Below are positions 2,335 to 46,017 of a stretch of DNA of 64,000 nt, piece by piece. The notes beneath the pieces were generated by a model that was not told the origin of the DNA, searched no databases, and saw only the letters and a list, made by a program, of their open reading frames with translations. The stretch's first letter is position 1. Each line of letters begins with the position of its first letter. Source of the DNA: an uncultured virus (IMG/VR IMGVR_UViG_3300022555_000054) (lineage: Duplodnaviria > Heunggongvirae > Uroviricota > Caudoviricetes); IMG/VR virus record IMGVR_UViG_3300022555_000054. One strand, written 5' to 3'. Made by a program: the position numbers and the translations under genes.

Positions 2335-3078
2335 ATGACCGAGCACAGGACCAAGGCGCGGACGCGGGCCGGGCGGAGAGAAGGCAGGAAGCGGCGGCAG
2401 GATGTGCTGCGCGAACCGAATGGCCGTGTCGCCGAGCGCGTCCAGATTGCTGATCGCGGGCCAACTGTCCACGAGGAACTGAAGCGGCAGATGGCGATCC
2501 GCTTTGGCCTGACGGTTGAGCAGATTGAAGCTGGAATGACCGGGAACAAGGACATAACCGGAATGGGGATGACGGCCGTCTATGCCCTCTGGCTCCGCGA
2601 TTTGCTCGGCCATAAAGGCGGTGTCGGGGAAAAGCGCAAGACGAACCTGGAGGATTACCGCACGCTCTGGGTAAACTGGTCGGCCATGACCGGAAGCAGG
2701 CGGTGGAAGCCGGACCAGAAGCCAGCCGGAATGGGTCTTACCGAGGAAGCATGGAGGGCTTGCGACGACAAAATGGCCGCGTGCGACGGGGTGCTGCAAC
2801 GGCTTCCTGGCGGCGATAATATCCGCGATGTGCTGGCGGAGATATGTCTCGACGACGCCATTCCCTGCGACCTAATCCCCCCGGAGGGCGCGCGGAACGC
2901 CGTCGTCGAGACGGCATTCTCCGGCCTAAAGGTCATCAGGGCAATCCGACTGGGCGCCGATGCCGTCGGGGCCGTTCTGTCGTCCAGGAAAATCCCAGAA
3001 CGCGCCCGCCCATCATTCGAGGACAAGCGGGCGGTGTTTGATAGCGTCATTCGGAATCGGGGGGCGTCGCCTGGGTAG
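2335..3078 (+). CDS. Putative late-transcription regulator (Q-position gene)
   Basis: Last early-right gene before a promoter/terminator pair and the late operon. Function is inferred from position only. Confidence 0.4.
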   Translation: MTEHRTKARTRAGRREGRKRRQDVLREPNGRVAERVQIADRGPTVHEELKRQMAIRFGLTVEQIEAGMTGNKDITGMGMTAVYALWLRDLLGHKGGVGEKRKTNLEDYRTLWVNWSAMTGSRRWKPDQKPAGMGLTEEAWRACDDKMAACDGVLQRLPGGDNIRDVLAEICLDDAIPCDLIPPEGARNAVVETAFSGLKVIRAIRLGADAVGAVLSSRKIPERARPSFEDKRAVFDSVIRNRGASPG

Positions 3079-3223
3079 ACTTTTGGCGCTCACGGAAACG
3101 GCGTTGGCGTTCGGCGTTGGTTGATTGTCCGCCGCTTTCGCTCGGGAGTCCAGCAGCTTTCCGAGCCGCGCGCCGTTTGGCAGATGCGGCCCGGAACTGG
3201 GCTTTGCGGTGTTCGTCGGTCAA
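3047..3223 (-). CDS. Small basic protein (STNAERQRRFRERQK motif)
   Basis: TTG start overlaps the upstream stop; AERQRRxRER motif is common in small phage proteins. Confidence 0.55.
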   Translation of the reverse strand: MTDEHRKAQFRAASAKRRAARKAAGLPSESGGQSTNAERQRRFRERQKSTQATPPDSE

Positions 3224-3399
3224 GCTGCTACGCCCATCGCCCAGTCTTCGCACTTCTGCATGTGAGCGGCGCGCTTCTCAGCTTCGGCGCGGGTCCGGTA
3301 TGAGCCGGCGCAAAAGTTGCCTTGCTGGTCGATGACGATCCATGACTTGCGGGCGGTATCGGCACAAACGTCGAGGTGGGCGAGGAAAACTTGGCGCAT
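3220..3399 (-). CDS. Small hypothetical protein
   Basis: GGAG RBS before MRQVFLAHLDV... Confidence 0.55.
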   Translation of the reverse strand: MRQVFLAHLDVCADTARKSWIVIDQQGNFCAGSYRTRAEAEKRAAHMQKCEDWAMGVAA

Positions 3400-3445
3400 T
3401 GTCTGTCTCCGTGGTGAATGCGGCCCCGAAGGGCCGCTGTTGGTG

Positions 3446-3664
3446 TTAGGCGGCAATGTTATGGTCGAGATAGTCGTTCCGGTAGGCGGCGCGACGGAAA
3501 TAGGCGCTCCCATCGATCCGCTTGCGCCCGTCAGCCAAGCAACGCTTAAACTCATTGGCGCTATCCTCTGCCGTATCGCCAACTCCGCAAAGCAGGTCGC
3601 CATCAATAATCTGGGAAGTGGTGAACTCGAACCGGCCGCAGTACATGCGAGAGGTGGTTTTCAT
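3446..3664 (-). CDS. Small hypothetical protein
   Basis: GGAG RBS; lies directly downstream of a leftward sigma70-type promoter. Confidence 0.6.
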   Translation of the reverse strand: MKTTSRMYCGRFEFTTSQIIDGDLLCGVGDTAEDSANEFKRCLADGRKRIDGSAYFRRAAYRNDYLDHNIAA

Positions 3665-3711
3665 CGTTCGTCTCCGTTGGTTGGTGGCGTTCCCGCCGTC
3701 TTGATGTTCTA

Positions 3712-3740
3712 ACTGTAACGCGTCATCACACCGCCGTCAA
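3712..3740 (-). promoter_or_regulatory. Leftward sigma70-type promoter
   Basis: TTGACG-N17-TACAGT on the minus strand. Confidence 0.6.
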
Positions 3741-3797
3741 CAGGAAAATAACGCGTCAACGAAATAATCCGCGCCCCTACCCGCTGCGCTTTTCCCC

Positions 3798-3825
3798 TTG
3801 ACGCCGCGCTAACCATCGTGATAAC
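3798..3825 (+). promoter_or_regulatory. Candidate late promoter (pR'-like)
   Basis: TTGACG-N16-GATAAC, followed about 30 nt later by a terminator. Confidence 0.4.
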
Positions 3826-3857
3826 CGTCGAAATAGATGCTGAACTTGTTGTCAGTG

Positions 3858-3891
3858 AAGCCCCGCCCGGCCATCCCCGAGGCGGGCTTTT
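3858..3891 (+). terminator. Intrinsic terminator (tR'-like)
   Basis: AAGCCCCGCC...GGCGGGCTTTT hairpin followed by a U tract. Confidence 0.6.
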
Positions 3892-3935
3892 CGTGTCTGC
3901 GGCCCTGACCGGACCAACGCCGTGATATCCGGCGC

Positions 3936-4169
3936 CGGTTATCCGCAATGGGGGCTAACTGCGTAGCGGGTGGCCCTCTTCGTGTCCGACATGGGGTGCA
4001 TCCTGAGTCGGCAAAGCCGGTGACGAGGCCGGTATGCTGTCGTGCAACTCGACGGCGCCAATCCAGCCCTCAGCGGGCCAGGGATCGCGCACACAGCCGA
4101 GCGGCGACAGCGCCAGTACCGAAACGAGCCGAAAGCCAACGATGAACCCGGTGAGCCGGGCGCGTTGGC
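3936..4169 (+). ncRNA. Candidate structured RNA with a tRNA-like T-arm
   Basis: Stems GGTTATCCGC/GCGGGTGGCC, CCGAC/GTCGG, GCCGG/CCGGT, GCTGTCG-TGCAACT-CGACGGC then ..CCA, and GCCAACG..CCCGG-TGAG-CCGGG..CGTTGGC. Confidence 0.4.
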
Positions 4170-4187
4170 CTGCGCCGTAGCTGCCAT

Positions 4188-4475
4188 GTGCCTGCCCTGC
4201 CCGAACTGTTCGATAAAATCGAATGGTTGGGGAAAGGGGCTTTGGGGATTGGGGCACCGATAGAACCGAATACCACTGCGCCAGAGCGCTACGTCGCGGC
4301 GGCGCTGGAACCGATACACCGAGGCATCATGGACGAATACGGCTTCACCGTCGAAACCCGGCCTCGTCTCGGCTCGGGAGCGGTTCGCACCCCCAGCCGT
4401 CCCGCCAGTATCGAGTCGACACGGTGCAGCCTGACGGTCGCCGAGTGCGCGGCTATCGTCTACGGGGGGAAATGA
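4188..4475 (+). CDS. Hypothetical protein
   Basis: Stop overlaps the Cache gene ATG (ATGA); start uncertain. Confidence 0.45.
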   Translation: MPALPELFDKIEWLGKGALGIGAPIEPNTTAPERYVAAALEPIHRGIMDEYGFTVETRPRLGSGAVRTPSRPASIESTRCSLTVAECAAIVYGGK

Positions 4476-5161
4476 TGCCACGCGCCATCGCTCACTTCCC
4501 CGAGTTCGTCGGGCATCTGACAGGGCGCACGCGGTCACAAGTCGTTCTCGCCATTCTGGCGATGCTGATGCTGCCGCTCTCCCTGATGGGTGTGGTCGAG
4601 ATCAAGAACGCCGCCATCGCGGCTCGTATGGACGGAAGTCAGCACCTCGTCGAAGCCAGCATCAATACCGTCTTGGGCTACTACAACGCCGCGATGGCCG
4701 GTAAGATCACCCAAGCCGACGCGCAACGAGCCGCCGTCGCCGTGCTCGACAGCATGTCCTACGACAAAAGCAATTATGTCTATGGCTACGACTACCGGTC
4801 ACAGCCGGGCAAAATCCTGCTGAAGTTCAATCGGGTTCGCCCCGATCTGGTCGGTGTTGACCGACGCGATGCCACATCGTCAGATGGCGTCAAATACGTC
4901 CTGGCCGGCTACAACGTCGCTCGAAATGGCGGCGGGTTCTACTCGTACCAGTGGGATGCTGGAGGCACATCGCCGAAAGCTCGCCCGAAAGTCAGCTACG
5001 CCGCAGCGTTCGAACCATGGGGCTGGTACATCGGCACCGGTTCGTACATCGACGATATCCTGATCCAATTTTGGAACAACATCTCATTCGTTTTGTCATT
5101 ATTCGCCGCGCTCTGTGCTCTCGGCTCTGCCCTGATTGATTGGCTTTATTCGAGGGTGTGA
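4472..5161 (+). CDS. Stand-alone membrane-anchored single Cache (sCache_2-type) sensor-domain protein with no cytoplasmic output domain
   Basis: TM1 VVLAILAMLMLPLSLMGVV; Cache signature G-IT-ADAQ-AA..Y...NYVYGYD...GGGFYSYQW...PKVSYAAAFEPWGWYIGTGSYIDDI; TM2 followed by a stop. Confidence 0.85.
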   Translation: MMPRAIAHFPEFVGHLTGRTRSQVVLAILAMLMLPLSLMGVVEIKNAAIAARMDGSQHLVEASINTVLGYYNAAMAGKITQADAQRAAVAVLDSMSYDKSNYVYGYDYRSQPGKILLKFNRVRPDLVGVDRRDATSSDGVKYVLAGYNVARNGGGFYSYQWDAGGTSPKARPKVSYAAAFEPWGWYIGTGSYIDDILIQFWNNISFVLSLFAALCALGSALIDWLYSRV

Positions 5162-5162
5162 T

Positions 5163-5696
5163 GTGCTCAGCGAAGCCGATATCTCTCCGACGATTCAAGC
5201 CGTCGTCACGGCCGTCTGTGGCATCGGCGCCATCGGGTATTTTTTGTGGCAGGTCTTCAGCCGCATAAAGGTCGATGATCGGCGTTCGGAACTTGACGCC
5301 GAACAGAAGGAAGACCGCTCGTCACTGCGTCGGCGCAATGACCAGCTAGAGCACAAGGTTTCGGAACTCCAAGACAGGCTGATCGAAGCCACCGCCGCAT
5401 CATCCGGTGCCGGTTCCTGCGTTGCCCAGATGCAGCGCACGATTATCCACCTTGAACGCCGCATCAAAGAGCTGTCGTCCGACATCAAGACGGTTGAGGC
5501 AGCATTCGATGAGTCCGAGGCGCTAACCGAGCAATACCGGCTGCTGTTGGCGCAAGCCAAGTTCTACCTGGAAAATTGCAAGGGCTGCCAGAACCCAGAG
5601 GCGCTAAAGTACCTTCGTGCTGAGCTGCCGAAGTACCTCGTCAAGACCGAGCACAACGAGCCGCTGCTGCTGGTGGAGCAATTCAATGATCGATAA
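5163..5696 (+). CDS. Single-TM coiled-coil protein
   Basis: GTG with GAGGG RBS 1 nt after the Cache stop; TM AVVTAVCGIGAIGYFLW; long heptad region; CKGC near the C terminus. Confidence 0.7.
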   Translation: MLSEADISPTIQAVVTAVCGIGAIGYFLWQVFSRIKVDDRRSELDAEQKEDRSSLRRRNDQLEHKVSELQDRLIEATAASSGAGSCVAQMQRTIIHLERRIKELSSDIKTVEAAFDESEALTEQYRLLLAQAKFYLENCKGCQNPEALKYLRAELPKYLVKTEHNEPLLLVEQFNDR

Positions 5697-5796
5697 CCCG
5701 TTTCTCGGAATCGCGTTTCGCTCGCTCGCCGTCATGACGACGCTCTGGCTGGCGCCGTTCGCCGCCTGTGGCGTGCCGATGATGTGGCGGGCGTGA
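5686..5796 (+). CDS. 36-aa hydrophobic peptide
   Basis: GGAG RBS; overlaps the upstream stop; MIDNPFLGIAFRSLAVMTTLWLAPFAACGVPMMWRA. Confidence 0.4.
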   Translation: MIDNPFLGIAFRSLAVMTTLWLAPFAACGVPMMWRA

Positions 5797-5976
5797 CCTT
5801 TTAAAGAACTAGGGCCAACGCGCCCTTCTGAACTATCGCCTCTGCCAAGTGGCGAATAGACGCGGCCAGTCAAGATCAACCGAAATTCTTCGGGGTCTGG
5901 ATGGCCGCATTAACCTGCGGCACCCGTCCGCGTCCGGGGCTTGGCAGCTTCCGGACCCCGAAGGAGACACCACATC

Positions 5977-7563
5977 ATGACCACGACCAACGCCGCATCT
6001 GCGGAGAATACCATGCTGCGTTCGATTTCCTTTGTTACCAGCCGCCACATGGTTCGGCCGGTAAACGCCGCCCACAAAGCGGCCGTGAAGGCGAAGATCG
6101 AGCGCATCGGCTTTCTTGCGCAGCATCCGCTTTGCGTGACGGCCGAAGGCAAGCTCTGGGCCGGCAATCATCGCTATGAGGTAGCGCTTGAACTGGGGCT
6201 TTCCGAAGTCCCAATGTTCATCGCCCCCGAGCCGGAGAGCCTGGACCGAGCCGCCATCGAGGATAACGACGCGAGCGCCGACGCTCTGCCGAACACCTTC
6301 GTGGACATCGCCGAGCTGGTATGGCGCAAACTGGACGCCGGCCAGACACAGCAGGCAGTGGCGGATGAGTTGGGGAAGAGTCGGGACGCCATCGCCAAGT
6401 TCGCGGCCATGAAAGCGATTTCGGTAAGCGCGTGGGATGTTGTGACGACGGCTGTAAGGTCCGTCACAACCTCGGGGGAAGATGGCGTCACAGCCAATGT
6501 GACGGACGGCACATTCTCTGAGAACCTTCTCCGATCGATCCTCGCCCTCACCCCAGCCCAGCAACTCGACCTCGTCACCCGCCTCGCCGCCGGCCATATC
6601 AAGAAGTCCCAGTTCAAGACGCAGGCCGAGAACCTGAAGTCGCGAAACGAGGCGACGGACTGGGTACGCAAGGAACTGTCGGCGGTTGATGCTGATATCC
6701 TTGATGGTGCCCTCGCCGAAGTCGCCAAGGGCATCTATGACGACGAATGGAAGGCCGCAAGCGGATCGGGGGCGCGGCTCGGGAAACTAGTTGAAGCGAA
6801 GCGCGATGCACACAAAAAGCTGCACGCGATCACTTTGATACGAGGCGATTTCGCTCAGGAAATCGAGAAGTTGCCGTCTGGATCAATCGACGCCATCATC
6901 ACCGATCCGCCGTACAACATTAGCCAGGATCGAACCTATACGCGGACTGACGGCGCCAACATCGAGAAAAATTTCGGCGCATGGGACAATGTCGACCATG
7001 CTGAGTTCAAGGGCATGATTAGCGCGTGGGCCGCGTCGTTCGCGCGAGTGCTCAAGCCCGGCGGAACGGGATTCATGTTCGTCGGAGAGCGGTATTTCAA
7101 CGTCGCACAGGACATCTTTGAGGCGGCCGGGTTCGAGATCAAGGGCACGTTCTTCTGGTGCCGAACCAATCCCGGCGCAAGCATGACCCAAGCCGACTTC
7201 ATGCCGGCAATGGATTATGCAATCCAGTTCGTGAAGCCGGGAGCCAAGCGAACATTCAACTATCCCGGAGATGCGGACGGAGACGGATTCAACTGGCGCC
7301 GCTTCCCGATCTGCGGCGGTGGAGAGCGGATTAAGCGTCAGGGGGCGCGGGCCGATGAAAGCGCCAGCCTGCACCCGACGCAGAAGCCGGAAGCTGTGAT
7401 CCGCCACCTGATGGAGTGCGTCACCGTTCCGGGCGACACGGTTCTTGACGGATTCATGGGGGTCGGGACTACGGCCGCTGTAGCGAAGAAGTCGGGCCGT
7501 AGGTTCATCGGGTTCGAGATCGACCAGACGTTCTTTGACGCGGCAAAGCAGCGGCTGGCGTAA
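5977..7563 (+). CDS. ParB/Srx-like domain + HTH + N4/N6 DNA methyltransferase (beta class) fusion
   Basis: N-terminal LWAGNHRYEVA; HTH TQQAVADELGKSRDAIAK; TDPPY, HPTQKP, LDGFMGVGTT; AAGGAG RBS. Confidence 0.9.
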   Translation: MTTTNAASAENTMLRSISFVTSRHMVRPVNAAHKAAVKAKIERIGFLAQHPLCVTAEGKLWAGNHRYEVALELGLSEVPMFIAPEPESLDRAAIEDNDASADALPNTFVDIAELVWRKLDAGQTQQAVADELGKSRDAIAKFAAMKAISVSAWDVVTTAVRSVTTSGEDGVTANVTDGTFSENLLRSILALTPAQQLDLVTRLAAGHIKKSQFKTQAENLKSRNEATDWVRKELSAVDADILDGALAEVAKGIYDDEWKAASGSGARLGKLVEAKRDAHKKLHAITLIRGDFAQEIEKLPSGSIDAIITDPPYNISQDRTYTRTDGANIEKNFGAWDNVDHAEFKGMISAWAASFARVLKPGGTGFMFVGERYFNVAQDIFEAAGFEIKGTFFWCRTNPGASMTQADFMPAMDYAIQFVKPGAKRTFNYPGDADGDGFNWRRFPICGGGERIKRQGARADESASLHPTQKPEAVIRHLMECVTVPGDTVLDGFMGVGTTAAVAKKSGRRFIGFEIDQTFFDAAKQRLA

Positions 7564-7584: not shown

Positions 7585-8028
7585 ATGGGCCGGGCAAACC
7601 CGCTTCGATGGGATTGCGACAGCAAGGGCTGTTTCAATCTCAAGAAGCGCCCAAAGATTGAACTCTTTGCGGAGTGTCTTCCCGGAAACATGGCTTTTGG
7701 CGACATCGACGGAATTGCCGAACTGAATGGAAACTTCCTCCTTCTTGAGTGGAAGCAGAGCATAAGCGGAGATATTGGCCGGGGTCAGGCCATCATGTAC
7801 GAGCGGATGGCATCAAATCCCGCATGGCATGTCTTCGTGATTGTTGGCGATCCCGAAACCATGAAAATCGAGAGGTATGCCGTTTTTCATTCTGGCAAGA
7901 TGAGTAGATGGAAACCGGCCAATATAGATGATGTTAAAGAACGAATCAGAGGCTGGGTTCGGTGGGCGGGAGAAAATAACCGAGCATCGCTATATCAGCT
8001 ACGCCGACCAGCAACGCTATCTCGATGA
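7585..8028 (+). CDS. Small PD-(D/E)XK-like nuclease-fold protein
   Basis: GDIDG...LLEWK...GQ motif spacing; AGGAG RBS. Confidence 0.55.
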   Translation: MGRANPLRWDCDSKGCFNLKKRPKIELFAECLPGNMAFGDIDGIAELNGNFLLLEWKQSISGDIGRGQAIMYERMASNPAWHVFVIVGDPETMKIERYAVFHSGKMSRWKPANIDDVKERIRGWVRWAGENNRASLYQLRRPATLSR

Positions 8029-8098
8029 CGGTTGGGAACTGATGCCCCAAACCGGACCTCATGCAGCTTACGGCGTGATCGCGACCAGGGAAATACCG
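7976..8098 (+). repeat. Diverged 123-bp direct repeat, copy 1 (copy 2 at 9626-9748)
   Basis: Encodes ITEHRYISYADQQRYLDDGWELMPQTGPHAAYGVIATREIP. Confidence 0.9.
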
Positions 8099-8278
8099 AT
8101 GACCGAGACCCGCAAGCGCCGCGTCGTGCGGCACGTCCAGGCGCATCGCCGGCAGTACACGATTACTGTCAGCGCGGCGATGGTCGGGACGGTGCTGTAC
8201 CTCGTCGGAGACCTGGTGATCGGGGCGCTGGGGAATGGGCTGTGGTCGGTTGTGGCGCCGGTTTTTGGGATAAAATAG
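8099..8278 (+). CDS. Small basic and TM protein
   Basis: MTETRKRR... followed by a hydrophobic C-terminal half; in frame with repeat copy 1. Confidence 0.5.
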   Translation: MTETRKRRVVRHVQAHRRQYTITVSAAMVGTVLYLVGDLVIGALGNGLWSVVAPVFGIK

Positions 8279-8292
8279 GAAAAATCGGAACT

Positions 8293-9624
8293 ATGAACAC
8301 TGAATTGCGCGTAGAACAGTGGCCGACCGATAAACTGGTAGACTACGCCCGCAATCCGCGCAAGAACGATGCTGTCGTTGACAAGATGTGCGCCGCTATT
8401 CGTGAGTTCGGCTTTCGTATCCCGGTGGTGGCAAAGTCGGACGGCACCGTGGTCGACGGCCACTTGCGACTGAAGGCAGCAAGAAAACTCGGGCTTGAGA
8501 CTGTTCCGGTTGCACTCGCTGATGACTTAACCGACGCGCAGATCAAAGCGTTCCGCCTGCTGGCGAACAAGTCGGCAAACTGGGCTGAGTGGGACGACGA
8601 ACTGCTGGCGCTGGAGTTGGGCGAGCTACAAGCCGAGGGGTTCGATCTCGAACTGACCGGTTTCGACGGCGACGAGATTGCTGAGTTGCTGGCGGAAGAG
8701 ACTGAGGGGCTGACTGACCCCGATGACACGCCGGAGACGCCGGCCGACCCGGTTAGCGTGCTCGGCGATGTCTGGGTGCTCGGGAGGCATCGGATCGTGT
8801 GCGGCGATAGCACAAGCGCCGACGTTATCGAAAAGCTGATGTTGGGCAAACAAGCCGATCTGTGTTTCACGTCCCCGCCCTACGCGCAACAGCGCGACTA
8901 CAAATCCGGCGGGATCAACGATTGGGATGCTCTGATGCAGGGCGTGTTCTCAATCCTACCGGTCAAGCACGAAGCTCAAGTCTTGGTAAATCTCGGGCTC
9001 GTCCACCGCGATGGCGAGTGGATGCCCTATTGGGACGGCTGGGTCGAGTGGATGAGGACCGCCGGATATCGCCGCTTCGGCTGGTACGTCTGGGATCAGG
9101 GTCCGGGACTGCCCGGCGATTGGAATGGCCGACTAGCGCCATCGCACGAGTTCATCTTCCACTTCAACCGCGTGGCTGAGAAAGCGCGGAAGACGAAAGA
9201 GTCGAAGCACGCTGGTTCCGCCAACCACGGGACTGGGATGCGAGGGAAAGACGGGAAAGTCGGTGGATATACAGCCATCGGGAAGAACGTCCAAGACAGG
9301 AAGATACCAGATAGCGTCGTCCGAGTGATGCGCCACAAAGCGCGTGGGATTGAGACTGCGCATCCGGCAGTGTTTCCAGTCGATCTCGTTTCGGAGATGA
9401 TGACAGCATTCAGCGATCCAGACGACTTGATATACGAGCCGTTTATGGGCAGCGGCACGCAGCTTATCAGCGCCCAGAAAAACGGCCGCAGTTGCTACGG
9501 CTGCGAACTGGCCCCGGAATACGTTGACGTTGCCGTTCGTCGGTTCCAACAGTTCAGCGGGCAACTGGCTAAACTTGAGTCCGATGGCCGCACGTTCGAC
9601 GAGATCAAGAATGCCGGCCGGTGA
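8293..9624 (+). CDS. ParB-like domain + N4/N6 DNA methyltransferase fusion
   Basis: YARNPRKND, VVDGHLRLKAA (ParB-like); TSPPY, HPAVFP, YEPFMGSGT. Confidence 0.92.
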   Translation: MNTELRVEQWPTDKLVDYARNPRKNDAVVDKMCAAIREFGFRIPVVAKSDGTVVDGHLRLKAARKLGLETVPVALADDLTDAQIKAFRLLANKSANWAEWDDELLALELGELQAEGFDLELTGFDGDEIAELLAEETEGLTDPDDTPETPADPVSVLGDVWVLGRHRIVCGDSTSADVIEKLMLGKQADLCFTSPPYAQQRDYKSGGINDWDALMQGVFSILPVKHEAQVLVNLGLVHRDGEWMPYWDGWVEWMRTAGYRRFGWYVWDQGPGLPGDWNGRLAPSHEFIFHFNRVAEKARKTKESKHAGSANHGTGMRGKDGKVGGYTAIGKNVQDRKIPDSVVRVMRHKARGIETAHPAVFPVDLVSEMMTAFSDPDDLIYEPFMGSGTQLISAQKNGRSCYGCELAPEYVDVAVRRFQQFSGQLAKLESDGRTFDEIKNAGR

Positions 9625-9790
9625 CATCACCGAGTGCCGCTACATCAGCTACGCCGACCAGCAACGCTACCTCGACGACGGCTGGACGATTACCCCACAG
9701 CGCGGCCCGCACGCGGCTTATGGCGTGATCGCCAGCAGACCCATTCCGGACAGCAACCATGCCCCGCAAACCCTTCCGCCCCACCCCTGA
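9611..9790 (+). CDS. Small protein containing repeat copy 2 (9626-9748)
   Basis: MPAGDITECRYISYADQQRYLDDGWTITPQRGPHAAYGVIASRPIP... Confidence 0.5.
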   Translation: MPAGDITECRYISYADQQRYLDDGWTITPQRGPHAAYGVIASRPIPDSNHAPQTLPPHP

Positions 9791-10172
9791 ACACCGGAAG
9801 CTGGTCGAGCAGCTATCCGCCTATGGCATCCCCCAGGCGGACATCTGCGCCATGATCATCAACCCGGAATCGGGCCGGAAAATCGACGAGCAGACGCTGG
9901 CGAATAACTTCCGACATGAACTGGACACCGGCACGACCAAGGCCAACGCCCGCGTTGCAGGCTCGCTCTACAAGAACGCCACCGAGGGCAATAACGTCAC
10001 GGCGCAAATCTTCTGGCTCAAGACGCGCGCCCGCTGGAAAGAGCCGCCGCAGGAATTGCGCCATGGGGGCAGCGATGAGGCGGGGCCGATTCATGTTGAT
10101 GTTGGTTCGCCCGAGCAACGCCAAGCGGCACTAACTCTCGCCATCGAAATGGCCGCGTCGAAAGCCGAGTAG
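9759..10172 (+). CDS. terS: Terminase small subunit
   Basis: HTH-like N terminus; VAGSLYKNATEGNNVTAQIFWLKTR; directly upstream of terL. Confidence 0.8.
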   Translation: MPRKPFRPTPEHRKLVEQLSAYGIPQADICAMIINPESGRKIDEQTLANNFRHELDTGTTKANARVAGSLYKNATEGNNVTAQIFWLKTRARWKEPPQELRHGGSDEAGPIHVDVGSPEQRQAALTLAIEMAASKAE

Positions 10173-11608
10173 TGGGCGCCACCGCGATAATCGAGACGAT
10201 GGCGGCGGAGTTGGCCGCGAACCGTGACGCTCTCGCGATCATGGCCGCGCAAGAGCAGTTGGTTCCATTTGCCGGATTCGCCCACTGCGGAAGGTTTCGC
10301 GCGCCGCGTCACTTGCAAAAGCTGGCGCGGGCGCTGGAAGCGGTAGAACGCGGAGACATCAAGCGGCTCATTGTTGCCATGCCGCCGAGACACGGTAAGT
10401 CGCATCTGGTATCCGAGACGTTTCCGGCATGGTATCTTGGGCGCAACCCTGACAAGTACGTGATCTCCGCGACATACGCGCAAGAGTTTGCCGACGACAT
10501 CGGGCGAAAAGTCCGCAATACCATGGCGGACCCCAGCTACGGCGCGTTGTTCCCGAAATCCATGCTTGCGAAAGACAGCACAAGCGTTCGCAGGTTCAGC
10601 ACGGTATCCGGTGGATCATACTTCTCGGTTGGCGCGGGCGGCCCAATTACTGGGCGCGGCGCACACTTGCTTCTGATAGATGATCCCCTGAAAAGTCGCG
10701 AAGACGCCGACAGTGAAATCATCCGCAAGCATTTGCGGGACTGGTACGCATCGGTTGCCTACACTCGGCTTATGCCCGGAGGCGCGGTTGTTATTATAGC
10801 CACCCGCTGGCATGAGGACGACCTAACCGGCTGGCTTCTTAGGGACCATCAACACGAGGACTGGACCGTTATCGATATGCCGGCGATCAGTGACGTTGGC
10901 GAGGCTCTGTGGCCTGAGCAATACCCGCTTGAGCGGCTCCGGGAGATCGAGCGCACCATCGGCGTCCGAGAGTGGTCAGCCCTGTACCAGCAACGCCCGG
11001 CCCCGGTCGAAGGCGTGCTGTTCAAGCCGGAGCGGATCACGCCGGTTGACGCGTTGCCGGCCGGGTTGAAGTTCGCTCGCGGCTGGGATTTGGCCGCGAC
11101 GGCGCAACTCGGGACCAATGACCCGGACTGGACTGTTGGGGCGCTTGTCGGCCGGGACACGGCGGGCGTGATCTACATCGCCGATATTGTCCGGCTGCGC
11201 GGTTCGCCGCTGGATGTTGAGCGCGCCATCGCCAACACGGCGGCACGAGACCGGGCCGAGCATGGCGCGGGTGTTTCGATCAGCCTACCGCAAGACCCAG
11301 GGCAGGCCGGCAAAGCACAGGCCCAAGCGTTCGTACGGATGCTGGCCGGTTACGTGGTCGAGACGACGCCGGAGACCGGAGACAAGGCCACACGCGCCGC
11401 GCCGCTCGCCGCTCAGGTTGAGGCGGGTAATGTGCGGATGCTCAAGGCGCCGTGGAACCGGGATTTGCTCGGTGAGATGTCGGTGTTTCCAGCCGGCAAG
11501 CATGATGACCAAGTGGACGCGCTGAGTAGGGCGTTCGCGAAGGTTTGCGTGAGCAATACATCCGTCATCGACTTCTACGCCGGCCTATCCGCCGCCAAGA
11601 AAGCATAG
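10172..11608 (+). CDS. terL: Terminase large subunit
   Basis: Walker A MPPRHGKS, Walker B LLLIDD, TRWHEDD, GWDLA, HDDQVDALS nuclease motif. Confidence 0.95.
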   Translation: MGATAIIETMAAELAANRDALAIMAAQEQLVPFAGFAHCGRFRAPRHLQKLARALEAVERGDIKRLIVAMPPRHGKSHLVSETFPAWYLGRNPDKYVISATYAQEFADDIGRKVRNTMADPSYGALFPKSMLAKDSTSVRRFSTVSGGSYFSVGAGGPITGRGAHLLLIDDPLKSREDADSEIIRKHLRDWYASVAYTRLMPGGAVVIIATRWHEDDLTGWLLRDHQHEDWTVIDMPAISDVGEALWPEQYPLERLREIERTIGVREWSALYQQRPAPVEGVLFKPERITPVDALPAGLKFARGWDLAATAQLGTNDPDWTVGALVGRDTAGVIYIADIVRLRGSPLDVERAIANTAARDRAEHGAGVSISLPQDPGQAGKAQAQAFVRMLAGYVVETTPETGDKATRAAPLAAQVEAGNVRMLKAPWNRDLLGEMSVFPAGKHDDQVDALSRAFAKVCVSNTSVIDFYAGLSAAKKA

Positions 11609-37491: not shown

Positions 37492-38052
37492 ATGTCGTGC
37501 TATAAAGTGAACACACTGACGGGTGAGATATTATCCGCTCAGCTCGTCCAGCCCCCGGAAGAGTTTTCCGGCTTGTCTTATGCTGTGCTTCAAGACCTTG
37601 GACCGGCGTTCCCAGATCGGTCGGACCTTTCCGGGGTCGGATTTTGGGAGGAATCTCGGGTTTCCGCGTGTCCGGACCCGATGCACATTGCGGCAGATGT
37701 TTGGCCGCCTGTCGCCGATATGGAACGTAAAGTAGTCGTCACAACTCAGGGGGTGGTGCCAAAGCCGCTCTTTCTGATCCAGAGGGATGTTAAGCGTTTA
37801 GGCGTTGAGGTTGATGCCTGGATTGATCAGATATCGCAGGAACGTGGCTACAAGTCTATCGAAGCCGTGTGCAGCTATGCCAACAGCGCGAATGCGGCCT
37901 GGGCGGCTGATGCTCATGCGGCAATCACTTGGCGCGATGCTGTTTGGTCGGCGTTCTTCGCTACTCAGGCCCAAGTCCTCGCCGGGACCGTTCCGATGAT
38001 GACCCAGGGCGCTCTCATCGCTTCACTGCCCAAGATCGTGTGGCCATCATGA
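37492..38052 (+). CDS. Tail fibre assembly-like protein
   Basis: ERGY.SI...CSYANS....W.ADA.A...WRDAVW...LPKIVWP. Confidence 0.7.
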   Translation: MSCYKVNTLTGEILSAQLVQPPEEFSGLSYAVLQDLGPAFPDRSDLSGVGFWEESRVSACPDPMHIAADVWPPVADMERKVVVTTQGVVPKPLFLIQRDVKRLGVEVDAWIDQISQERGYKSIEAVCSYANSANAAWAADAHAAITWRDAVWSAFFATQAQVLAGTVPMMTQGALIASLPKIVWPS

Positions 38053-38834
38053 CCACCATCGACCCTGCCGCCCTCGCGCTGATCAAGCAGTTCGAGGGCC
38101 GCCCGACGCATCCCGAGTGGCCGGGCGGCGCCAGCGGAATCACTATCGGTTACGGCTCGGACATCGGCGCTGACCCTGACGGCCTGGACGATTGGCACGA
38201 CCACCTCGACCCCTACGCTTTCGCTCGTCTGCAAGAGGCGCGCGGCGTTCGGGGACCGGCGGCGATGGCGCTGTTGCCCAAGCTCCGGGACATTGAGATT
38301 CCGCCGGCCGCGTCCGAAGCGGTGCTGATCGGCGCCGCGTTGCCGGCCTATCTCGTGCTGACGCTCCATACATTCCCCGGCGCCGAACATCTCCCGGCCA
38401 TGAGCCAGGGCGCGTTGGTGTCGCTGGTCTACAATCGCGGAGCATCGCTCGACGGCCCTAAGCGCCAGGAAATGGCAGCCATCCGCGACCACATCGACGC
38501 CGCCGTCTACGACATGGTGCCGCTTGAGTTCGCGTTGATGGCGCGGCTTTGGAAAAACGGCGTTCCGACAGCATCGAATCTCGCCGGCCGCCGGTATTAC
38601 GAGGGCCACCTGTTCGAGCGCGGGTTGATGGGCGCTCATCTGACCGACCAATCCACGCTCCTGCTCGGGGACTCTGGCGACAGGGTGCGGGCGATGCAGC
38701 GGGCGCTGCGGGTCAATGCTGATGGTGAGTTCGGCACCGGCACTCTGATTGCGCTTCTCATTTGGCAGAGCCGTCAGGGGTTCTCAAAGCACGGCATGGC
38801 TGACGCCGATACGCTGCGGTCGTTGGGGCTATGA
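38049..38834 (+). CDS. Endolysin: GH24/pesticin-like muramidase with C-terminal peptidoglycan-binding domain
   Basis: LIKQFEG, WPGGASGITIGYG.D.G, ALVSLVYNRG, L.GRR..E, GDSG.RV..MQ.AL...ADGEFG.GT. Confidence 0.9.
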   Translation: MTTIDPAALALIKQFEGRPTHPEWPGGASGITIGYGSDIGADPDGLDDWHDHLDPYAFARLQEARGVRGPAAMALLPKLRDIEIPPAASEAVLIGAALPAYLVLTLHTFPGAEHLPAMSQGALVSLVYNRGASLDGPKRQEMAAIRDHIDAAVYDMVPLEFALMARLWKNGVPTASNLAGRRYYEGHLFERGLMGAHLTDQSTLLLGDSGDRVRAMQRALRVNADGEFGTGTLIALLIWQSRQGFSKHGMADADTLRSLGL

Positions 38835-38978
38835 AGCCGAAGTTTCCGCCCCCGGTCATCTCTGCCGCCGAAGTCGCCGAAGCCGCAGCCTGCCCGGCTC
38901 GGACGGTGCGGTGCCAGTCGCCGGGGTATTGCTACACCACCCTCTGCCGGCGCAGGCTGGCGCACAAGGATACCTGAC

Positions 38979-39506
38979 ATGAGTATCTTCTCCGACATCG
39001 CCGAGGCTGGGCTCAACAGCCTCGCCCAGTACGCCCCGACTCTCGCCACCATGATCGGCGGCCCGCTCGCCGGCACGGCCGTCACCGCGATCGAATCCGT
39101 GCTCGGCATCACTCCGACCGGCGACGCCAACAAAGCCCTGGCCGCCTGCGCCAACGCCACGCCGGAGCAAATCCTGGCGCTCAAGGCCGAGGACAACCGG
39201 CACGCCGAGGCTCTCCAGAAGGCCGGTATCGACCTGGAGACCTTGGCGCAGAAGGATCGGGACTCCGCGCGCCAGCGGGAAATCGCCGTGAAAGACTGGG
39301 TTCCCGGCGTGCTGGCTATCGTCCTCACTGTAGGGTTCTTCGGTCTTTTAGGCTGGCTTGTGAGCCACGAACCGCCTGTAGGCAGTCGCGACATCCTCAA
39401 CATCATGCTCGGAGCACTCGGGGCCGGTTGGGGAACCATGGTGAGCTATTTCTACGGCAGTTCTAAAGGAGCTGACGCTATGGCCGCAAAGCTCTCAGTG
39501 CGATAA
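38979..39506 (+). CDS. Holin-like membrane protein (3TM type)
   Basis: APTLATMIGGPLAG, DRDSARQRE, two C-terminal TMs, YFYGSS. Confidence 0.75.
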   Translation: MSIFSDIAEAGLNSLAQYAPTLATMIGGPLAGTAVTAIESVLGITPTGDANKALAACANATPEQILALKAEDNRHAEALQKAGIDLETLAQKDRDSARQREIAVKDWVPGVLAIVLTVGFFGLLGWLVSHEPPVGSRDILNIMLGALGAGWGTMVSYFYGSSKGADAMAAKLSVR

Positions 39507-39602: not shown

Positions 39603-40055
39603 ATGGGTGAGCCGCATGTCGTTTCTGCGCTGCGCGACAAGAGAGCCGAGTTGGCCGGGCTGGCGCAGCACCATGAGCAACAGGCTCTCGCCTTTAGGTC
39701 CGAGATGGGCCACGTCGATGCCGTCCTGAGGCTCTACGCGCCCGACCTGGAGCCGGAATCGATCCCCGCTCGCCGGTATCGGCGGCGGTGCCCATTCTTC
39801 AAGAACAAGGAGGCCACCAGACTCTGCGCCGACGTGCTGCGCGGTGCCGACGAGCCAATGGCGACGAACGCCATCACGGCTCGGGTGATGCACCGGAAGA
39901 AGATGGCGGGCGATGACCCGAAGGTGATCGACCAGATGCGCCGGACGGTCTACAAGACGCTCAGCCGGCAGCGCAGCTACTTCCAGCGCCACGATGGGGA
40001 GTTCGGCGAACTCACATGGTCGCTGCTGGACCCAATGCAGCCAATGATGATCTAG
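39603..40055 (+). CDS. Transposon-associated hypothetical protein
   Basis: GGAGG RBS; HVVSALRDKRAELAG...HVDAVLRL. Confidence 0.7.
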   Translation: MGEPHVVSALRDKRAELAGLAQHHEQQALAFRSEMGHVDAVLRLYAPDLEPESIPARRYRRRCPFFKNKEATRLCADVLRGADEPMATNAITARVMHRKKMAGDDPKVIDQMRRTVYKTLSRQRSYFQRHDGEFGELTWSLLDPMQPMMI

Positions 40056-40073
40056 TCGTGCCGCTCGCCGATA

Positions 40074-41084
40074 TCACGCCGCCCAATTCCGCTGCCAGTA
40101 CCCGACGAAATCAATGCTGGGCGCGGTTTTGCCGACCAGACGACCGACAATCTCGAACTGATCGCCGTTCGACAGGTCTTTGAAGTCTTCCCGCCATGCG
40201 ATTTCGTTAGCGTACCGGGCGGCGTAGGCGCCAGAGATGTGGTGATGAATGCCAATTTCCGACCGACGGAGGCGGTTGAAGAGTCCCTCAGCATGGTTGG
40301 TGCAGGCTTTGTCCTCACCAAAATATTCGACCGAGTGGTTCACCCGATAGTTTTTGTAAGGCGCAACAACCTTGTCCCATGCAGGAGCCTCATCGGCGTG
40401 GACGATTGTTCCCTTGTCGAGGTTATCGCGGATGAATTCACCAGAATCATCTTCGCTCTGAAACACCTTGGTTTTGGTACGACCGCCCCGCTCGGTTATG
40501 GCGACAACGCATTGTTCCTTGCCGTTCTGATTCTCCTTACGGCGCATGTCCTTGCGTTTGGCTTTTCGATTTTCGGGATATTCATAGCCACCGATAAAGC
40601 AGCCGTCGATTTCAACAATCTTGTCGAGACCTCCAATATTATTAGCCATAACCTCTTTATGAATGCATTCGCGCAGCTTGTGCTCAAGGACGAATGCGGT
40701 TTTGTATTGAACATTAAGCTCACGCGAGAGCATCAATGCCGCAGAACCCTTAACATTATTAACGTAGATTACAATGGCGGCGAGGTAGTCCCGTATTGGC
40801 AACTTGTGATGGGCGAACGAGGTGCCAGCGGTGAGGCCAATGTCCTTTGCGCACCCCGAGCAGCGGTAGCGGAACGTTCCGTTTGGTCGGCGACAGTCGT
40901 AGTGCTCGTCGCAGGAGCCGCAGTGCCGGCAGATTGGCTTGCCGTCATTTTGGTGCCAGCGGAGCCGAGCAAAGGCGGCCTCGGCCTCAAGATCGGTCAT
41001 TCTGAAGATGTTGCCAAGGGAGATGGTGCGAGCCGACGCCTTCTTGAGGCGGTGCGTGCCTTGCTTGCGGTAGCGACGGGCCAT
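40074..41084 (-). CDS. IS1595-family (ISXO2-like DDE) transposase
   Basis: Zn ribbon CRHCG...YRCSGC; LSRELNVQYKTAF; VEIDG.FIGG; VHADE; VNHS.EY; TNHAEG.F; GIHHHIS..Y..RY.NE..WR. Confidence 0.95.
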   Translation of the reverse strand: MARRYRKQGTHRLKKASARTISLGNIFRMTDLEAEAAFARLRWHQNDGKPICRHCGSCDEHYDCRRPNGTFRYRCSGCAKDIGLTAGTSFAHHKLPIRDYLAAIVIYVNNVKGSAALMLSRELNVQYKTAFVLEHKLRECIHKEVMANNIGGLDKIVEIDGCFIGGYEYPENRKAKRKDMRRKENQNGKEQCVVAITERGGRTKTKVFQSEDDSGEFIRDNLDKGTIVHADEAPAWDKVVAPYKNYRVNHSVEYFGEDKACTNHAEGLFNRLRRSEIGIHHHISGAYAARYANEIAWREDFKDLSNGDQFEIVGRLVGKTAPSIDFVGYWQRNWAA

Positions 41085-41226
41085 GGCCGAACCCCCTCTT
41101 ACTGTGTTCGACAAGGCTAGCACACCCTACCATTGGTGTCAACACAAAACCAATGGTAGGCATTGCTATACAAATGTGATAGGTATCTTGACCACCCTAC
41201 GGGGCAACCATTTTTTGGGAAGAATC

Positions 41227-41478
41227 ATGACCTACGACGAGTTTCGGCGGCAGCTTGGTAAGGCAGCCATCAGCATCCGTGAGTTTGCAGAACTGCTTCG
41301 AATGTCACCCAACACCGTTTCAAACAAGGCCCAGCAGGGCCGCGTCCCAGACCACATGGCGGTGATCGCAGCGCTGATCGCCGAGATGGCTGAGAGGCAG
41401 ATCGACTACCGTTCTATCATAGGCAAGCTTGACTTGGACGGCGGCTCACATCGCGGCAACCGCACGAGGAATGATTGA
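41227..41478 (+). CDS. HTH regulator (passenger)
   Basis: MTYDEFRRQLGKAAISIREFAELLRMSPNTVSN. Confidence 0.75.
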   Translation: MTYDEFRRQLGKAAISIREFAELLRMSPNTVSNKAQQGRVPDHMAVIAALIAEMAERQIDYRSIIGKLDLDGGSHRGNRTRND

Positions 41479-41481
41479 GCC

Positions 41482-41511
41482 TTGAACCCCGCGAGCGTTC
41501 ACGTTATGTTC
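41482..41511 (+). promoter_or_regulatory. Promoter overlapped by an alphaproteobacterial LexA-type box
   Basis: TTGAAC-N17-TATGTT; GTTC-acgttat-GTTC at 41497-41511. Confidence 0.6.
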
Positions 41512-41648
41512 TGGTTGCGGAAAAAATCAATGTATCCCGCAAATTCAGGCTTGACTTTGGCGCCAGTTTGGCGCCACATATGTAATCAGCGTTAGCTTAG
41601 GGCAATCAGTGCGCGATGTCTCCAACATTTGAAGGGATGTGCTCAAAA

Positions 41649-41816
41649 ATGGACTCGCGAAATCGCACCAGTTTCCGGTTGCCACCTGAGGTAAACAATC
41701 AGATTGACATCCTAAGGCAGCAACTTCCTGGCACGGTGTCTCGGAACACTTGGATAGAGATTGCAATACGAGAAAAGATCGAGCGCGACACTAAGGTCGA
41801 TGGGGTGACAAAATGA
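41649..41816 (+). CDS. Ribbon-helix-helix controller-like protein
   Basis: TSFRLPPEV...ID......VSRNTWIEIAIREK; ATGA-coupled to the MTase. Confidence 0.7.
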   Translation: MDSRNRTSFRLPPEVNNQIDILRQQLPGTVSRNTWIEIAIREKIERDTKVDGVTK

Positions 41817-42994
41817 GCCATAAATTCTTTGAGTTTTTCGCAGGCGGTGGCATGGCTAGAGCCGGCCTTGGGAGGAATTGGGCTTGTGCTTTCGCGAATG
41901 ATTTTGATCCCAATAAAGCATCGGCTTATAGGGCTAATTGGGGAGAGTCTGATTTGTTGCTTGGTGATATTAATGTCATCACCCCGAAACAGCTTCCAGG
42001 AACGCCTGACTTAGTATGGGCATCATTTCCTTGTCAGGACCTTTCGCTTGCAGGGAATTACCTTGGTATTGGTTCATCATCGGACAAATGCCACACCCGA
42101 TCTGGGACATTCTGGCCATTTTGGCGTCTAATGCAGTCCTTGATGAAAGATGGACGTTCTCCGAAAATAATTGTCCTTGAGAATGTATTTGGAGCATTAA
42201 CATCCAATAATGGACAGGATTTTGCCGCAATCGCAGCGACATTTGCGCACTCAGGCTACCGTTTTGGCGCAATGGTTATCGATGCCGCGAAGTTCCTCCC
42301 CCACAGCCGCCCTCGGGTATTTGTGGTTGGTGTTCACCCCGATATTAGTATTCCGGCAAAACTATTGCTGAGTAAGCCGAATGAGGCGTGGCATCCACAA
42401 GCTTTGCGTCAGGCTTACACCAACATCTCTCAAGAAGCCAAATCGATGTGGGTTTGGTGGAAACTTGCTGAACCGCCTGTGCGCTCGTCCCGTTTCTCAG
42501 ACCTAATACAGGACAATCCTGAGGGGTGTTCTTGGCACACCCCTGCCGAGACGGCCCGTCTACTTGGTATGATGAACTCCTTGCACCTTGGAAAAGTTGA
42601 GGCTGCTAAGGCAATAGCTCAGTCTGAGGGGCGCCTCGTTGTTGGCGGGGTTTACAAGCGCACCCGCGTTGACGACGGGGATAAGGTGCAGCGCGCCGAG
42701 GTGCGCTTCGACGATCTTGCTGGATGCCTTAGAACACCTTCTGGCGGATCATCAAGGCAGAGCATCATCGTGGTGGACCAGAGCCGGAGAGTTAGATCCC
42801 GCCTGCTCTCTCCGCGTGAAGCTGCACGGCTGATGGGGTTGCCCGATACTTATAAGCTTCCAAAGAGCTACAACGAAGCCTATCATCTGGCAGGTGACGG
42901 GGTGGCTGTCCCCGTCGTCCGGTGGCTTGCTCAACACATCTTTGAACCTCTCTTGAGTCACAACCTTTCGCGCTTAGCAAAGAAGGCGGCCTAA
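41813..42994 (+). CDS. DNA cytosine-C5 methyltransferase
   Basis: EFFAGGG, ASFPCQDLS.AG, LENV, HSRPRVF, R.LSPREAARLMG.PD.Y, GDGVAVP. Confidence 0.95.
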   Translation: MSHKFFEFFAGGGMARAGLGRNWACAFANDFDPNKASAYRANWGESDLLLGDINVITPKQLPGTPDLVWASFPCQDLSLAGNYLGIGSSSDKCHTRSGTFWPFWRLMQSLMKDGRSPKIIVLENVFGALTSNNGQDFAAIAATFAHSGYRFGAMVIDAAKFLPHSRPRVFVVGVHPDISIPAKLLLSKPNEAWHPQALRQAYTNISQEAKSMWVWWKLAEPPVRSSRFSDLIQDNPEGCSWHTPAETARLLGMMNSLHLGKVEAAKAIAQSEGRLVVGGVYKRTRVDDGDKVQRAEVRFDDLAGCLRTPSGGSSRQSIIVVDQSRRVRSRLLSPREAARLMGLPDTYKLPKSYNEAYHLAGDGVAVPVVRWLAQHIFEPLLSHNLSRLAKKAA

Positions 42995-42997
42995 TAA

Positions 42998-43918: not shown

Positions 43919-44044
43919 CACATCGCCCATCATACGCTATAACCTAGGTTGTCACAGACTCTCACCATACACGCTTAGGTTCTGTGGCGTATGCTACACC
44001 ATGCCGGATAAGAGCCTTGCAGCAGTTTCGGAGCGATGGCTTAT

Positions 44045-44212
44045 TCATGGTGTCACCTCGTCGTTCCAAGTGAACTTCCCGCTCGTCGTGTCATAGTGCG
44101 CGGCGTGGTGGGCGATGATATCTGCATGAGGTTCAGTGGCTTTGGCAGCCAGGATACCAACCCCTACTGCTCCGAGGAAAAGACCAACCAGGAATCCAGT
44201 CAGCGTATCCAT
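44045..44212 (-). CDS. Small membrane protein
   Basis: AAGGAG RBS; MDTLTGFLVGLFLGAVGVGIL. Confidence 0.6.
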   Translation of the reverse strand: MDTLTGFLVGLFLGAVGVGILAAKATEPHADIIAHHAAHYDTTSGKFTWNDEVTP

Positions 44213-44379
44213 CAATTGTTCTCCTTCTTCACCGGCCGGTACGCCTCACACTTATCTTCCCCAGTCTTCGGGGTGAAAGCCATGTACGACTGCCGGTATT
44301 CACACGGAGTTGCTGTTGCTCGATAGCAATGGCTGCGGCTGGGGCAGTCTAGGTTCAGGCAGAGAGAAATATCAGGCAT
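44212..44379 (-). CDS. Small Cys-rich protein
   Basis: MPDISLCLNLDCPSRSHCYRATATPCEYRQSY; GGAGG RBS; coupled on both sides. Confidence 0.65.
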   Translation of the reverse strand: MPDISLCLNLDCPSRSHCYRATATPCEYRQSYMAFTPKTGEDKCEAYRPVKKENN

Positions 44380-45982: not shown

Positions 45983-46017
45983 ACCCCGCTGGCTTCGGCT
46001 GGCGGGGTTCTTTTTTG
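45983..46017 (+). terminator. Intrinsic terminator (plus strand)
   Basis: ACCCCGCTGGC-TTCG-GCTGGCGGGGT-TCTTTTTT. Confidence 0.7.

Follow-up and report, generated by a model that had tools for sequence, protein, structure and literature searches.

A phage-encoded, output-less sCache_2 membrane protein and its transmembrane/coiled-coil partner: a possible split sensor–transducer module

What use might a bacteriophage have for the membrane-bound sensory domain of a chemoreceptor when no signalling domain is attached to it? The question is raised by a locus in the IMG/VR record IMGVR_UViG_3300022555_000054, analysed here as a stretch of 64,000 nt (the window). The window takes up nearly the whole of a phage-like contig that measures ∼64.8 kb and comes from a freshwater metagenome. 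The locus consists of three open reading frames (ORFs). ORF1 encodes a transmembrane (TM)–sCache_2–TM protein that stops after its second TM helix, ORF2 a coupled TM/coiled-coil protein, and ORF3 a 36-aa hydrophobic peptide. An earlier note, made from the letters of this DNA, had described the three ORFs, and all are found where it had placed them, with one base between the stop of ORF1 and the start of ORF2 and with runs resembling ribosome-binding sites before all three starts. These Shine–Dalgarno-like runs are GGGGGGAA ahead of ORF1 (start 4472), GAGGG before ORF2 (start 5163) and GGAG before ORF3 (start 5686). The reading proposed here, to which we give a little less than an even chance, is that ORF1 and ORF2 constitute a conserved and co-inherited two-gene membrane module of temperate phages that acts as a split sensor–transducer.

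ORF1 consists of a 22-aa cytoplasmic N-tail, TM1, a periplasmic Cache domain, TM2 and a C-tail of 4–7 residues. Hydropathy places TM1 at residues 24–42 and TM2 at 204–222, and the N-terminal flank is basic. By prediction, the Cache domain is extracytoplasmic between the two TM helices and both ends of the protein are inside (N-in/C-in). The hidden Markov model search that had been suggested as a check confirms the domain: Pfam sCache_2 (PF17200) matches residues 54–202 with E 1.6e-29 and 103.3 bits against a cut-off of 25, and the Pfam search shows no HAMP, MCPsignal, HisKA or GGDEF domain in ORF1 at E ≤ 0.01. Codon-position GC (positions 1/2/3) is 0.58/0.44/0.72, which is coding-like. Profile matches in the PDB include 5g4y (4.2e-25) and 4k08 (1.3e-21). 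The AlphaFold model, with a mean predicted local distance difference test score (pLDDT) of 91, has helices at 18–75 and 194–227. Its fold, in which a long N-terminal helix leads into a PAS-like alpha/beta core, superposes on solved sCache_2 domains. Foldseek ranks 4k08 first (target template-modelling score, TMt, 0.89; root-mean-square deviation 2.0), with 2qhk at TMt 0.86 and 5g4y at TMt 0.83. ORF1 therefore resembles the sCache_2 carboxylate receptors PscD-SD (5G4Y/5G4Z), Adeh_3718 (4K08) and that of Vibrio (2QHK/4EXO), with profile E values of 4e-25 to 1e-19 and TMt values of 0.83–0.89, including the position of the periplasmic domain between two TMs. Unlike these receptors, it has no HAMP or MCP (methyl-accepting chemotaxis protein) domain, ends after TM2, shares at most 35% identity with them and is encoded by a phage.

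The ligand pocket of ORF1 appears to be conserved but altered, as judged from a profile alignment of ORF1 to PscD-SD. In PscD-SD the residues bonding the carboxylate are Tyr90, His103, Tyr143 and Lys156 (PMC5062169). By this mapping three of these four are kept, Tyr90 as Y102, Tyr143 as Y159 and Lys156 as K173, and Trp145 is kept as W161; all four kept residues are invariant or nearly so across the ORF1 family. Trp92 corresponds to Tyr104. Other differences from the receptors are an Asn in place of His103, a five-residue insertion after the first strand, and an LTGRTR motif in the cytoplasmic N-tail; of the 12 family sequences reaching the N-terminus, 7 keep this motif. A carboxylate-like ligand seems a fair guess, but nothing firmer.

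The short form of ORF1 is a family property. A search of 5.8 billion proteins gave 12 homologues of 199–244 aa with 45–95% identity, each ending just after TM2; the shortest, of 199 aa, has its N-terminus cut off. When the search is confined to longer proteins, the relatives are MCP or GGDEF receptors with 27–32% identity, and no cellular relative exceeds 35% identity in 185,579 species genomes (one per species) or in JGI metagenomes. All five of the closest cellular relatives tested have MCPsignal. In addition, 157 other loci hold 134 complete Cache ORFs of 264–1330 aa (median 626), and in 131 of these at least 300 aa follow the Cache match. The three exceptions with a short tail are a Cache–HAMP protein (L099), a Cache–GGDEF protein (L080) and the front half of a split MCP (L159). 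At the last, a cellular locus, a 264-aa TM–sCache_2–TM ORF is overlapped by a 330-aa ORF with an MCP signalling domain (L159 7923–9669); it is a truly split MCP, with which the phage pair can usefully be contrasted.

A maximum-likelihood tree was built by a quick search from 12 rows of the family and 60 domains of cellular proteins, with P0007 excluded as truncated; in it all ORF1 family rows fall on one side of a branch with SH-aLRT support of 100 and a length of 1.21. A pair of Thalassospira MCPs forms a weak sister group. These comparisons indicate that the Cache domain of ORF1 is of MCP origin and that ORF1 is a maintained short form, not a decayed MCP. The earlier note had likewise spoken against decay, and its conclusion holds up: 12 of 12 homologues are short, and the closest homologues are not full-length MCPs interrupted by a recent stop. 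The family has so far been found only in metagenome-derived sequence. Profile scans of IMG/VR with the module families gave only a near-identical uncultivated viral genome and one unrelated coiled-coil gene (L172), and matches to ORF1 in deposited phage records are chance matches at E 0.04 to Gordonia phage terminase genes.

ORF2 has a short acidic N-tail, a Gly-rich TM at ∼9–32, a long coiled coil and a C-terminal head with a CxxC (C139, C142) and an LPKYL helix. The model contains a single helix at 9–138 and a second at 145–158, with a mean pLDDT of 77.8. Codon-position GC is 0.63/0.37/0.71, also coding-like. Six close homologues of 177–235 aa with 42–97% identity share the Gly-rich TM with an invariant W-Q-V, the segments DRSSLRRRN-x2-LE and SSGAG, and the C-terminal element FYL-x-GC-x-GCQ ... 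LPKYL. The invariant TM residues are G20, G22, W29, Q30 and V31. Insertions of ∼49 residues in two members and of 11 in the L084 protein fit a continuous coiled coil better than a hairpin. HMMER with the ORF2 profile against 1.84 billion representatives gave 28 matches at E ≤ 1e-3, three of them at E ≤ 1e-30. The credible matches are all of 150–235 aa with the same layout, the long matches are generic coiled coils, and no fused form occurs among the matches.

No Pfam or PHROG family matches ORF2 above threshold, and neither HAMP nor MCPsignal is detected by Pfam in ORF2 or its 16 relatives. Below threshold, DivIC (PF04977) matches 7 of the 16 relatives at E ≤ 0.01 (best E 1.3e-5) and the window protein with 18.9 bits against a cut-off of 28.9; EzrA matches 3 of the 16. 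PHROG gives two weak matches, an Rz-like spanin at E 0.004 and a holin at E 0.005. The PHROG family annotated 'hol-like chemotaxis' (phrog_2658, E 1.7e-4), a label that also turns up incidentally in one paper, was dropped, as it matches just 2 of the 16 relatives. In the ESM Atlas the clusters nearest to ORF2 are unnamed viral proteins (score 0.90–0.92), and ORF2 relatives were not found in 50,697 deposited phage records; phage records likewise gave no true relative of P0024. ORF2 thus represents a small, previously unnamed family.

The distribution of charges is informative about the orientation of ORF2. In 15 of 15 TM-bearing relatives the N-flank has 0–1 K/R and 1–3 acidic residues, and the 15 residues after the TM have 2–5 K/R. 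By the positive-inside rule, these counts favour an N-out/C-in topology with a cytoplasmic coiled coil. Given the N-in/C-in topology predicted for ORF1, contact between the two proteins would then be made inside the membrane and on its cytoplasmic side rather than in the periplasm. Pairwise identity in ORF2 is highest in the TM, 0.61 vs 0.40–0.56 in the coiled coil; in ORF1 it is higher in TM2 (0.46) than in TM1 (0.31).

The two genes are conserved as a pair. When the ORF2 profile was run over all ORFs of 161 loci, four matched, and these are exactly the four loci with a family-type Cache gene: L001 and L082, both near-identical to the window, L083 and L084. The L083 proteins share 93% (ORF1) and 92% (ORF2) identity with those of the window, and the L084 proteins 56% and 52%. 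The TGA-T-GTG junction is identical in the window, L083 and L084, although the L084 proteins are only 52–56% identical. The L084 contig represents a different phage, whose terminase, portal, HNH and other ORFs have no match in the window at E 1e-3 (tblastn), and the DNA similarity between the two is confined to the ORF1–ORF2 pair. The terminase genes follow the pair in both phages, at a distance of 4.6 kb in the window and of 1.2 kb in L084. In L083 a window-like pair is joined to a downstream gene like that of L084, so recombination has reshuffled the flanks and left the pair intact. Sequence comparison accordingly indicates that the pair has been transferred as a unit between unrelated phages.

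The ratio of nonsynonymous to synonymous substitution (dN/dS) between the window and L083 is 0.072 for ORF1 (146 codons, dS 0.58) and 0.061 for ORF2 (177 codons, dS 0.81); between the window and L084 synonymous sites are saturated. Both genes are thus under strong purifying selection. The earlier note had named a pair absent from other phages and a dN/dS near 1 as findings that would speak against it; the neighbourhood survey found the pair with the same junction in L083 and L084, and both ratios are far from 1. Its proposal of a phage module of two polypeptides with a hydrophobic peptide is borne out for the coupling of ORF1 with ORF2. The peptide does not belong to the core, being diverged in L083 and absent in L084.

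A mechanism can be proposed in which ORF1, itself without an output domain, would hold its ligand-binding sCache_2 domain in the periplasm with a TM helix on either side, and ORF2 would be the bitopic partner, with its acidic N-tail outside and a coiled coil of ∼105 residues and the CxxC head in the cytoplasm. A parallel dimer is the probable form of the coiled coil, since the conserved LRRRN-x2-L segment carries an Asn in its core. The two proteins would form a hetero-oligomer, of which 2:2 is the simplest. Ligand binding would move the Cache TM helices, and this movement would pass sideways to the ORF2 TM and down the coiled coil, altering what the C-terminal head binds. The output might be a late-infection function such as lysis timing or exclusion; this is a guess, made because the module lies ahead of the DNA methylase and packaging genes. 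We infer the physical contact of ORF1 with ORF2, the topology of ORF2, the class of ligand (small and carboxylate-like) and the output. Carried further, the proposal would give the virus its own extracytoplasmic chemosensor, in which a periplasmic metabolite is relayed via new TM/coiled-coil transducers to a late-infection decision, on a cassette that is mobile between unrelated phages. This wider claim is doubtful. The decision could be when to lyse, to exclude rivals, or to hold the cell.

Several observations weigh against a split sensor–transducer. The ORF1 family is rare, with 12 clusters among 5.8 billion proteins, and relatives were not found in the 50,697 deposited phage records. Adjacency of the two genes is shown for just three independent lineages (window, L083 and L084), the neighbourhood having been read for 4 of the 12 Cache homologues. 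The Cache homologue P0012 and the ORF2 homologue P0018, each on nine contigs, share the same longest contig of 101,996 bp, which suggests a fourth paired lineage but is counted as no more than suggestive. No ORF2 relative was found in 401 sampled alphaproteobacterial genomes, a weak result, as there was no positive control among them. In the pocket, the carboxylate-binding His103 of PscD is replaced by Asn120, Phe126 by Val143 and Met129 by Gly146; because of these replacements the ligand may not be a C2/C3 carboxylate. The CxxC is absent in more distant ORF2 relatives, and ORF2 has no recognisable output domain, so that 'transducer' describes its architecture alone. In addition, the physical contact between the two proteins is a proposal.

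The features of the pair can also be explained in other ways. Small membrane proteins on mobile cassettes are typical of exclusion genes and morons, and the module could be a superinfection-exclusion or envelope-modifying moron, in which the membrane proteins have a structural role, preventing DNA from entering or hiding a receptor, and in which the Cache fold is a periplasmic binding module and not a switch. The small membrane proteins, the movement of the cassette between unrelated phages and the lack of an output domain fit such a role. The pocket residues, however, stay invariant in homologues with as little as 45% identity, which speaks for ligand binding, and PADLOC gives no match to ORF1 and coiled-coil noise only for ORF2 (no match either for ORF3; for ORF2 weak matches such as LmuB, E 4.8e-4, 16.6 bits). 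A moron is considered unlikely. A lysis module, with ORF2 as an i-spanin-like protein or as a regulator of the holin and with ORF1 tuning lysis from the periplasm, is suggested by the ORF2 TM, by two helical stretches around the Gly-rich SSGAG, by the C-terminal cysteines and by the weak spanin and holin matches cited above. Moreover, a lipobox scan shows no spanin pair elsewhere in the window, and the genes lie ahead of the terminase genes, as lysis genes do in lambdoid phages. ORF2, however, has no adjacent or embedded o-spanin lipoprotein: ORF3 has eight residues after its Cys, and its L083 counterpart has no Cys. The charge distribution predicts that the ORF2 coiled coil is in the cytoplasm, the conserved partner of ORF2 is a Cache gene and not a lipoprotein, and endolysin-like and holin-like genes are situated elsewhere, 32 kb away. 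The parallel that had been drawn with the T4 holin/antiholin pair likewise finds no sequence support in PHROGs. A role in lysis is therefore held to be quite improbable.

Phage-encoded bitopic division inhibitors exist, and ORF2 may be imagined to mimic the TM and leucine zipper of FtsB/DivIC, or a membrane-anchored EzrA-like coiled coil, and so to stop the host from dividing, under the control of ORF1. DivIC is indeed the Pfam family that matches most ORF2 relatives. The window protein nevertheless remains below the cut-off, and the resemblance may reflect no more than a TM helix followed by heptads. Proteins of the FtsB type have their N-terminus inside and their zipper in the periplasm (the alphaproteobacterial examples have basic N-flanks), opposite to the orientation predicted for ORF2, and interference with division is rated as very improbable. 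Slightly less credit still can be given to a dominant-negative decoy, i.e. a truncated receptor that heterodimerizes with a host chemoreceptor or kinase and disturbs sensing, as the earlier note had offered for an alternative. The derivation of ORF1 from MCP-type sensor modules and its lack of output would suit a decoy. Against this, no receptor above 35% identity appears in the 185,579 species genomes, the metagenome set or the search of longer proteins (the host itself may have a close paralogue), the ORF1 family stands on a long stem, and the obligate ORF2 partner is left unexplained. The chance that the pair is a decoy is accordingly slight. A functionless remnant of a decayed MCP is barely conceivable. 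The Cache domain is of MCP origin and a truly split MCP does exist (L159), but the dN/dS values of 0.06–0.07, the short length kept in 12 of 12 homologues down to 45% identity, the absence of a HAMP or MCPsignal trace in ORF2 and the conserved junction contradict it; the remnant reading is rejected on these selection and conservation data.

Coordinates of the pair and of other features of the window are listed below.

Features of the window at and around the ORF1–ORF2 locus
Feature	Position	Strand	Remarks
ORF1, output-less TM–sCache_2–TM protein	4472..5161	+	229 aa; stop TGA 5159-5161
Coupling junction TGA-T-GTG	5159..5165	+	ORF1 stop, base 5162, ORF2 GTG at 5163
ORF2, bitopic protein	5163..5696	+	177 aa; GTG start
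ORF3, hydrophobic peptide	5686..5796	+	36 aa; 11-nt overlap with ORF2 end
Small membrane protein	8099..8278	+	59 aa; basic N-terminus; possibly associated with the pair
GC-rich hairpin then U-run, terminator-like	3857..3895	+	∼575 nt upstream of ORF1
DNA methyltransferase	876-1499
DNA methyltransferase	5941-7563
DNA methyltransferase	8032-9624
Small-terminase candidate	9759-10172		by position only; no family match in Pfam search
Large terminase	10172-11608		followed by portal, protease, capsid and tail genes
Endolysin-like gene	37929-38834		peptidoglycan-binding domain
Holin-like gene	38979-39506		two C-terminal hydrophobic stretches; PHROG family phrog_1544, without assigned function
IS1595-family transposase	40074-41123	minus	within low-GC island
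DNA methyltransferase	41813-42994		within low-GC island
DUF4928 protein	42998-43918		within low-GC island
Integrase	47919-49058
DnaB-like helicase	62555-63982
RecT/exonuclease genes			present in window

ORF3 is probably a real small membrane-protein gene, an accessory and not part of the conserved core, to judge from its composition and distribution. Its GC content at third codon positions is 0.84. At the same place L083 has a 50-aa hydrophobic ORF with 32% identity over 31 aa, fitted so tightly between ORF2 and the following gene that stop and start codons overlap; L084 has no counterpart. A low-depth contig of 272 nt from a freshwater metagenome (X10) matches only 5684–5796 and has unlike flanks; the match differs by 14 substitutions and by a 1-nt deletion that a 1-nt insertion offsets. 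This hints that the ORF3 stretch also travels alone.

The 59-aa membrane protein is the only other gene common to the window and L084 phages and is upstream of the terminase in both. In a single comparison it shows 51% identity over 57 aa to L084:5489–5665 (E 5e-11). It has a very basic N-terminus (ETRKRRVVRHV...) and ∼38 hydrophobic residues, and the ESM Atlas gave no match to it. The gene may encode a further, third part of the module, or its presence in both phages may reflect shared ancestry of the region. The neighbourhood of this gene also has a direct repeat of 113 nt (77% identity, spacing 1650) at 7976–8088 and 9626–9738. The copies flank the small membrane-protein gene and a second ParB-N/methyltransferase gene, and in one frame both copies encode the segment YISYADQQRYLDDGW... 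The repeat may mark a duplicated or inserted cassette.

Upstream of ORF1, the 81-nt stretch containing the hairpin folds with -28.7 kcal/mol (z -1.9). Weak promoter-like hexamers, TTGACG and GATAAC separated by 16 nt, precede it, the hairpin starting ∼30 nt later (3798–3895). The consensus scan listed neither the 3857–3895 hairpin nor these hexamers; it did list a divergent minus-strand promoter-like site at 3740–3712. Rfam gives nothing near threshold on 3000–6200. A promoter with a nearby terminator resembles the layout of lambdoid late promoters that are overridden by an antiterminator. Taken with the location of the pair before the methylase and packaging genes, these upstream elements hint that the pair opens a late transcription unit.

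The phage setting that had been assumed for the locus is sound. With its terminase, portal, tail, integrase and RecT genes, the window has a gene content that marks a temperate tailed phage. Metagenome contig L082 (64,792 bp) contains the window sequence at 100% identity; further near-identical copies are an IMG/VR record and a virus record in which 80% of the words sampled from the window recur. The sequencing runs in which the window DNA occurs are from freshwater and lake metagenomes. In two of these (X8 and X9) the stretch is present almost letter for letter, without informative variants, and pieces from two others (X10 and X11) are low-depth and weak. To judge by the capsid protein, the closest relatives in culture are two Brevundimonas phages (56% identity), from which a Gram-negative, possibly alphaproteobacterial host is inferred. 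The Brevundimonas phages have no ORF1 or ORF2 equivalents upstream of the terminase. Endolysin-like and holin-like genes are found at 37929–39506, yet the lipobox scan of all six frames of the window shows no credible o-spanin or two-component spanin by which the phage would breach the outer membrane. Next to these genes is a low-GC island at 40000–47500 (0.50–0.57 vs ∼0.62 elsewhere), which looks like acquired restriction-modification-like cargo.

The ORF1–ORF2 pair can be compared with several known systems. Sensory rhodopsin II (SRII) with HtrII is a sensor paired with a separate transducer, and YycH/YycI are accessory membrane co-sensors of the kinase WalK. The phage pair resembles these in having an output-less membrane sensor beside a separate protein with a cytoplasmic coiled coil, and in a signal that would pass from TM to TM. 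It differs in that ORF2 lacks HAMP, MCP and kinase domains and falls into no named family, that the genes are viral, and that the contact is a proposal. Lambda Rz/Rz1 spanins share with ORF2 an N-terminal TM, two helices with a central Gly-rich segment, and C-terminal cysteines; unlike them, ORF2 has no o-spanin partner, has the opposite predicted topology, is not beside the endolysin and holin genes and matches the PHROG family with E 0.004. As in FtsB/DivIC (PF04977), the TM of ORF2 runs straight into a leucine zipper, but the match is below threshold, ORF2 is predicted to face the other way, its coiled coil is far longer and the CxxC head is extra.

Phages are known to sense small molecules by means of VqmA-Phi of vibriophage VP882 and AimR of the arbitrium phages, which are cytoplasmic DNA-binding proteins with known outputs. 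The phage described here would be like these in being temperate and having its own sensor for a chemical cue, and unlike them in that ORF1 has an extracytoplasmic Cache domain. The phage-encoded sensors known to us are all cytoplasmic transcription factors. A full-text literature search found no description of a phage-encoded sCache_2 membrane sensor or Cache sensor, and PHROGs, the 50,697 phage records and BFVD (best template-modelling score over the query, TMq, 0.50) yielded no described phage sCache_2 sensor; the same literature search and collections gave no named family for ORF2. The module is small (229 + 177 aa), self-contained and directly testable. If the proposed reading is true, the module would define a new compact family of transducers, built of a single TM helix, a coiled coil and a small head, and phages would also sample the chemistry outside the cell, via a periplasmic Cache domain.

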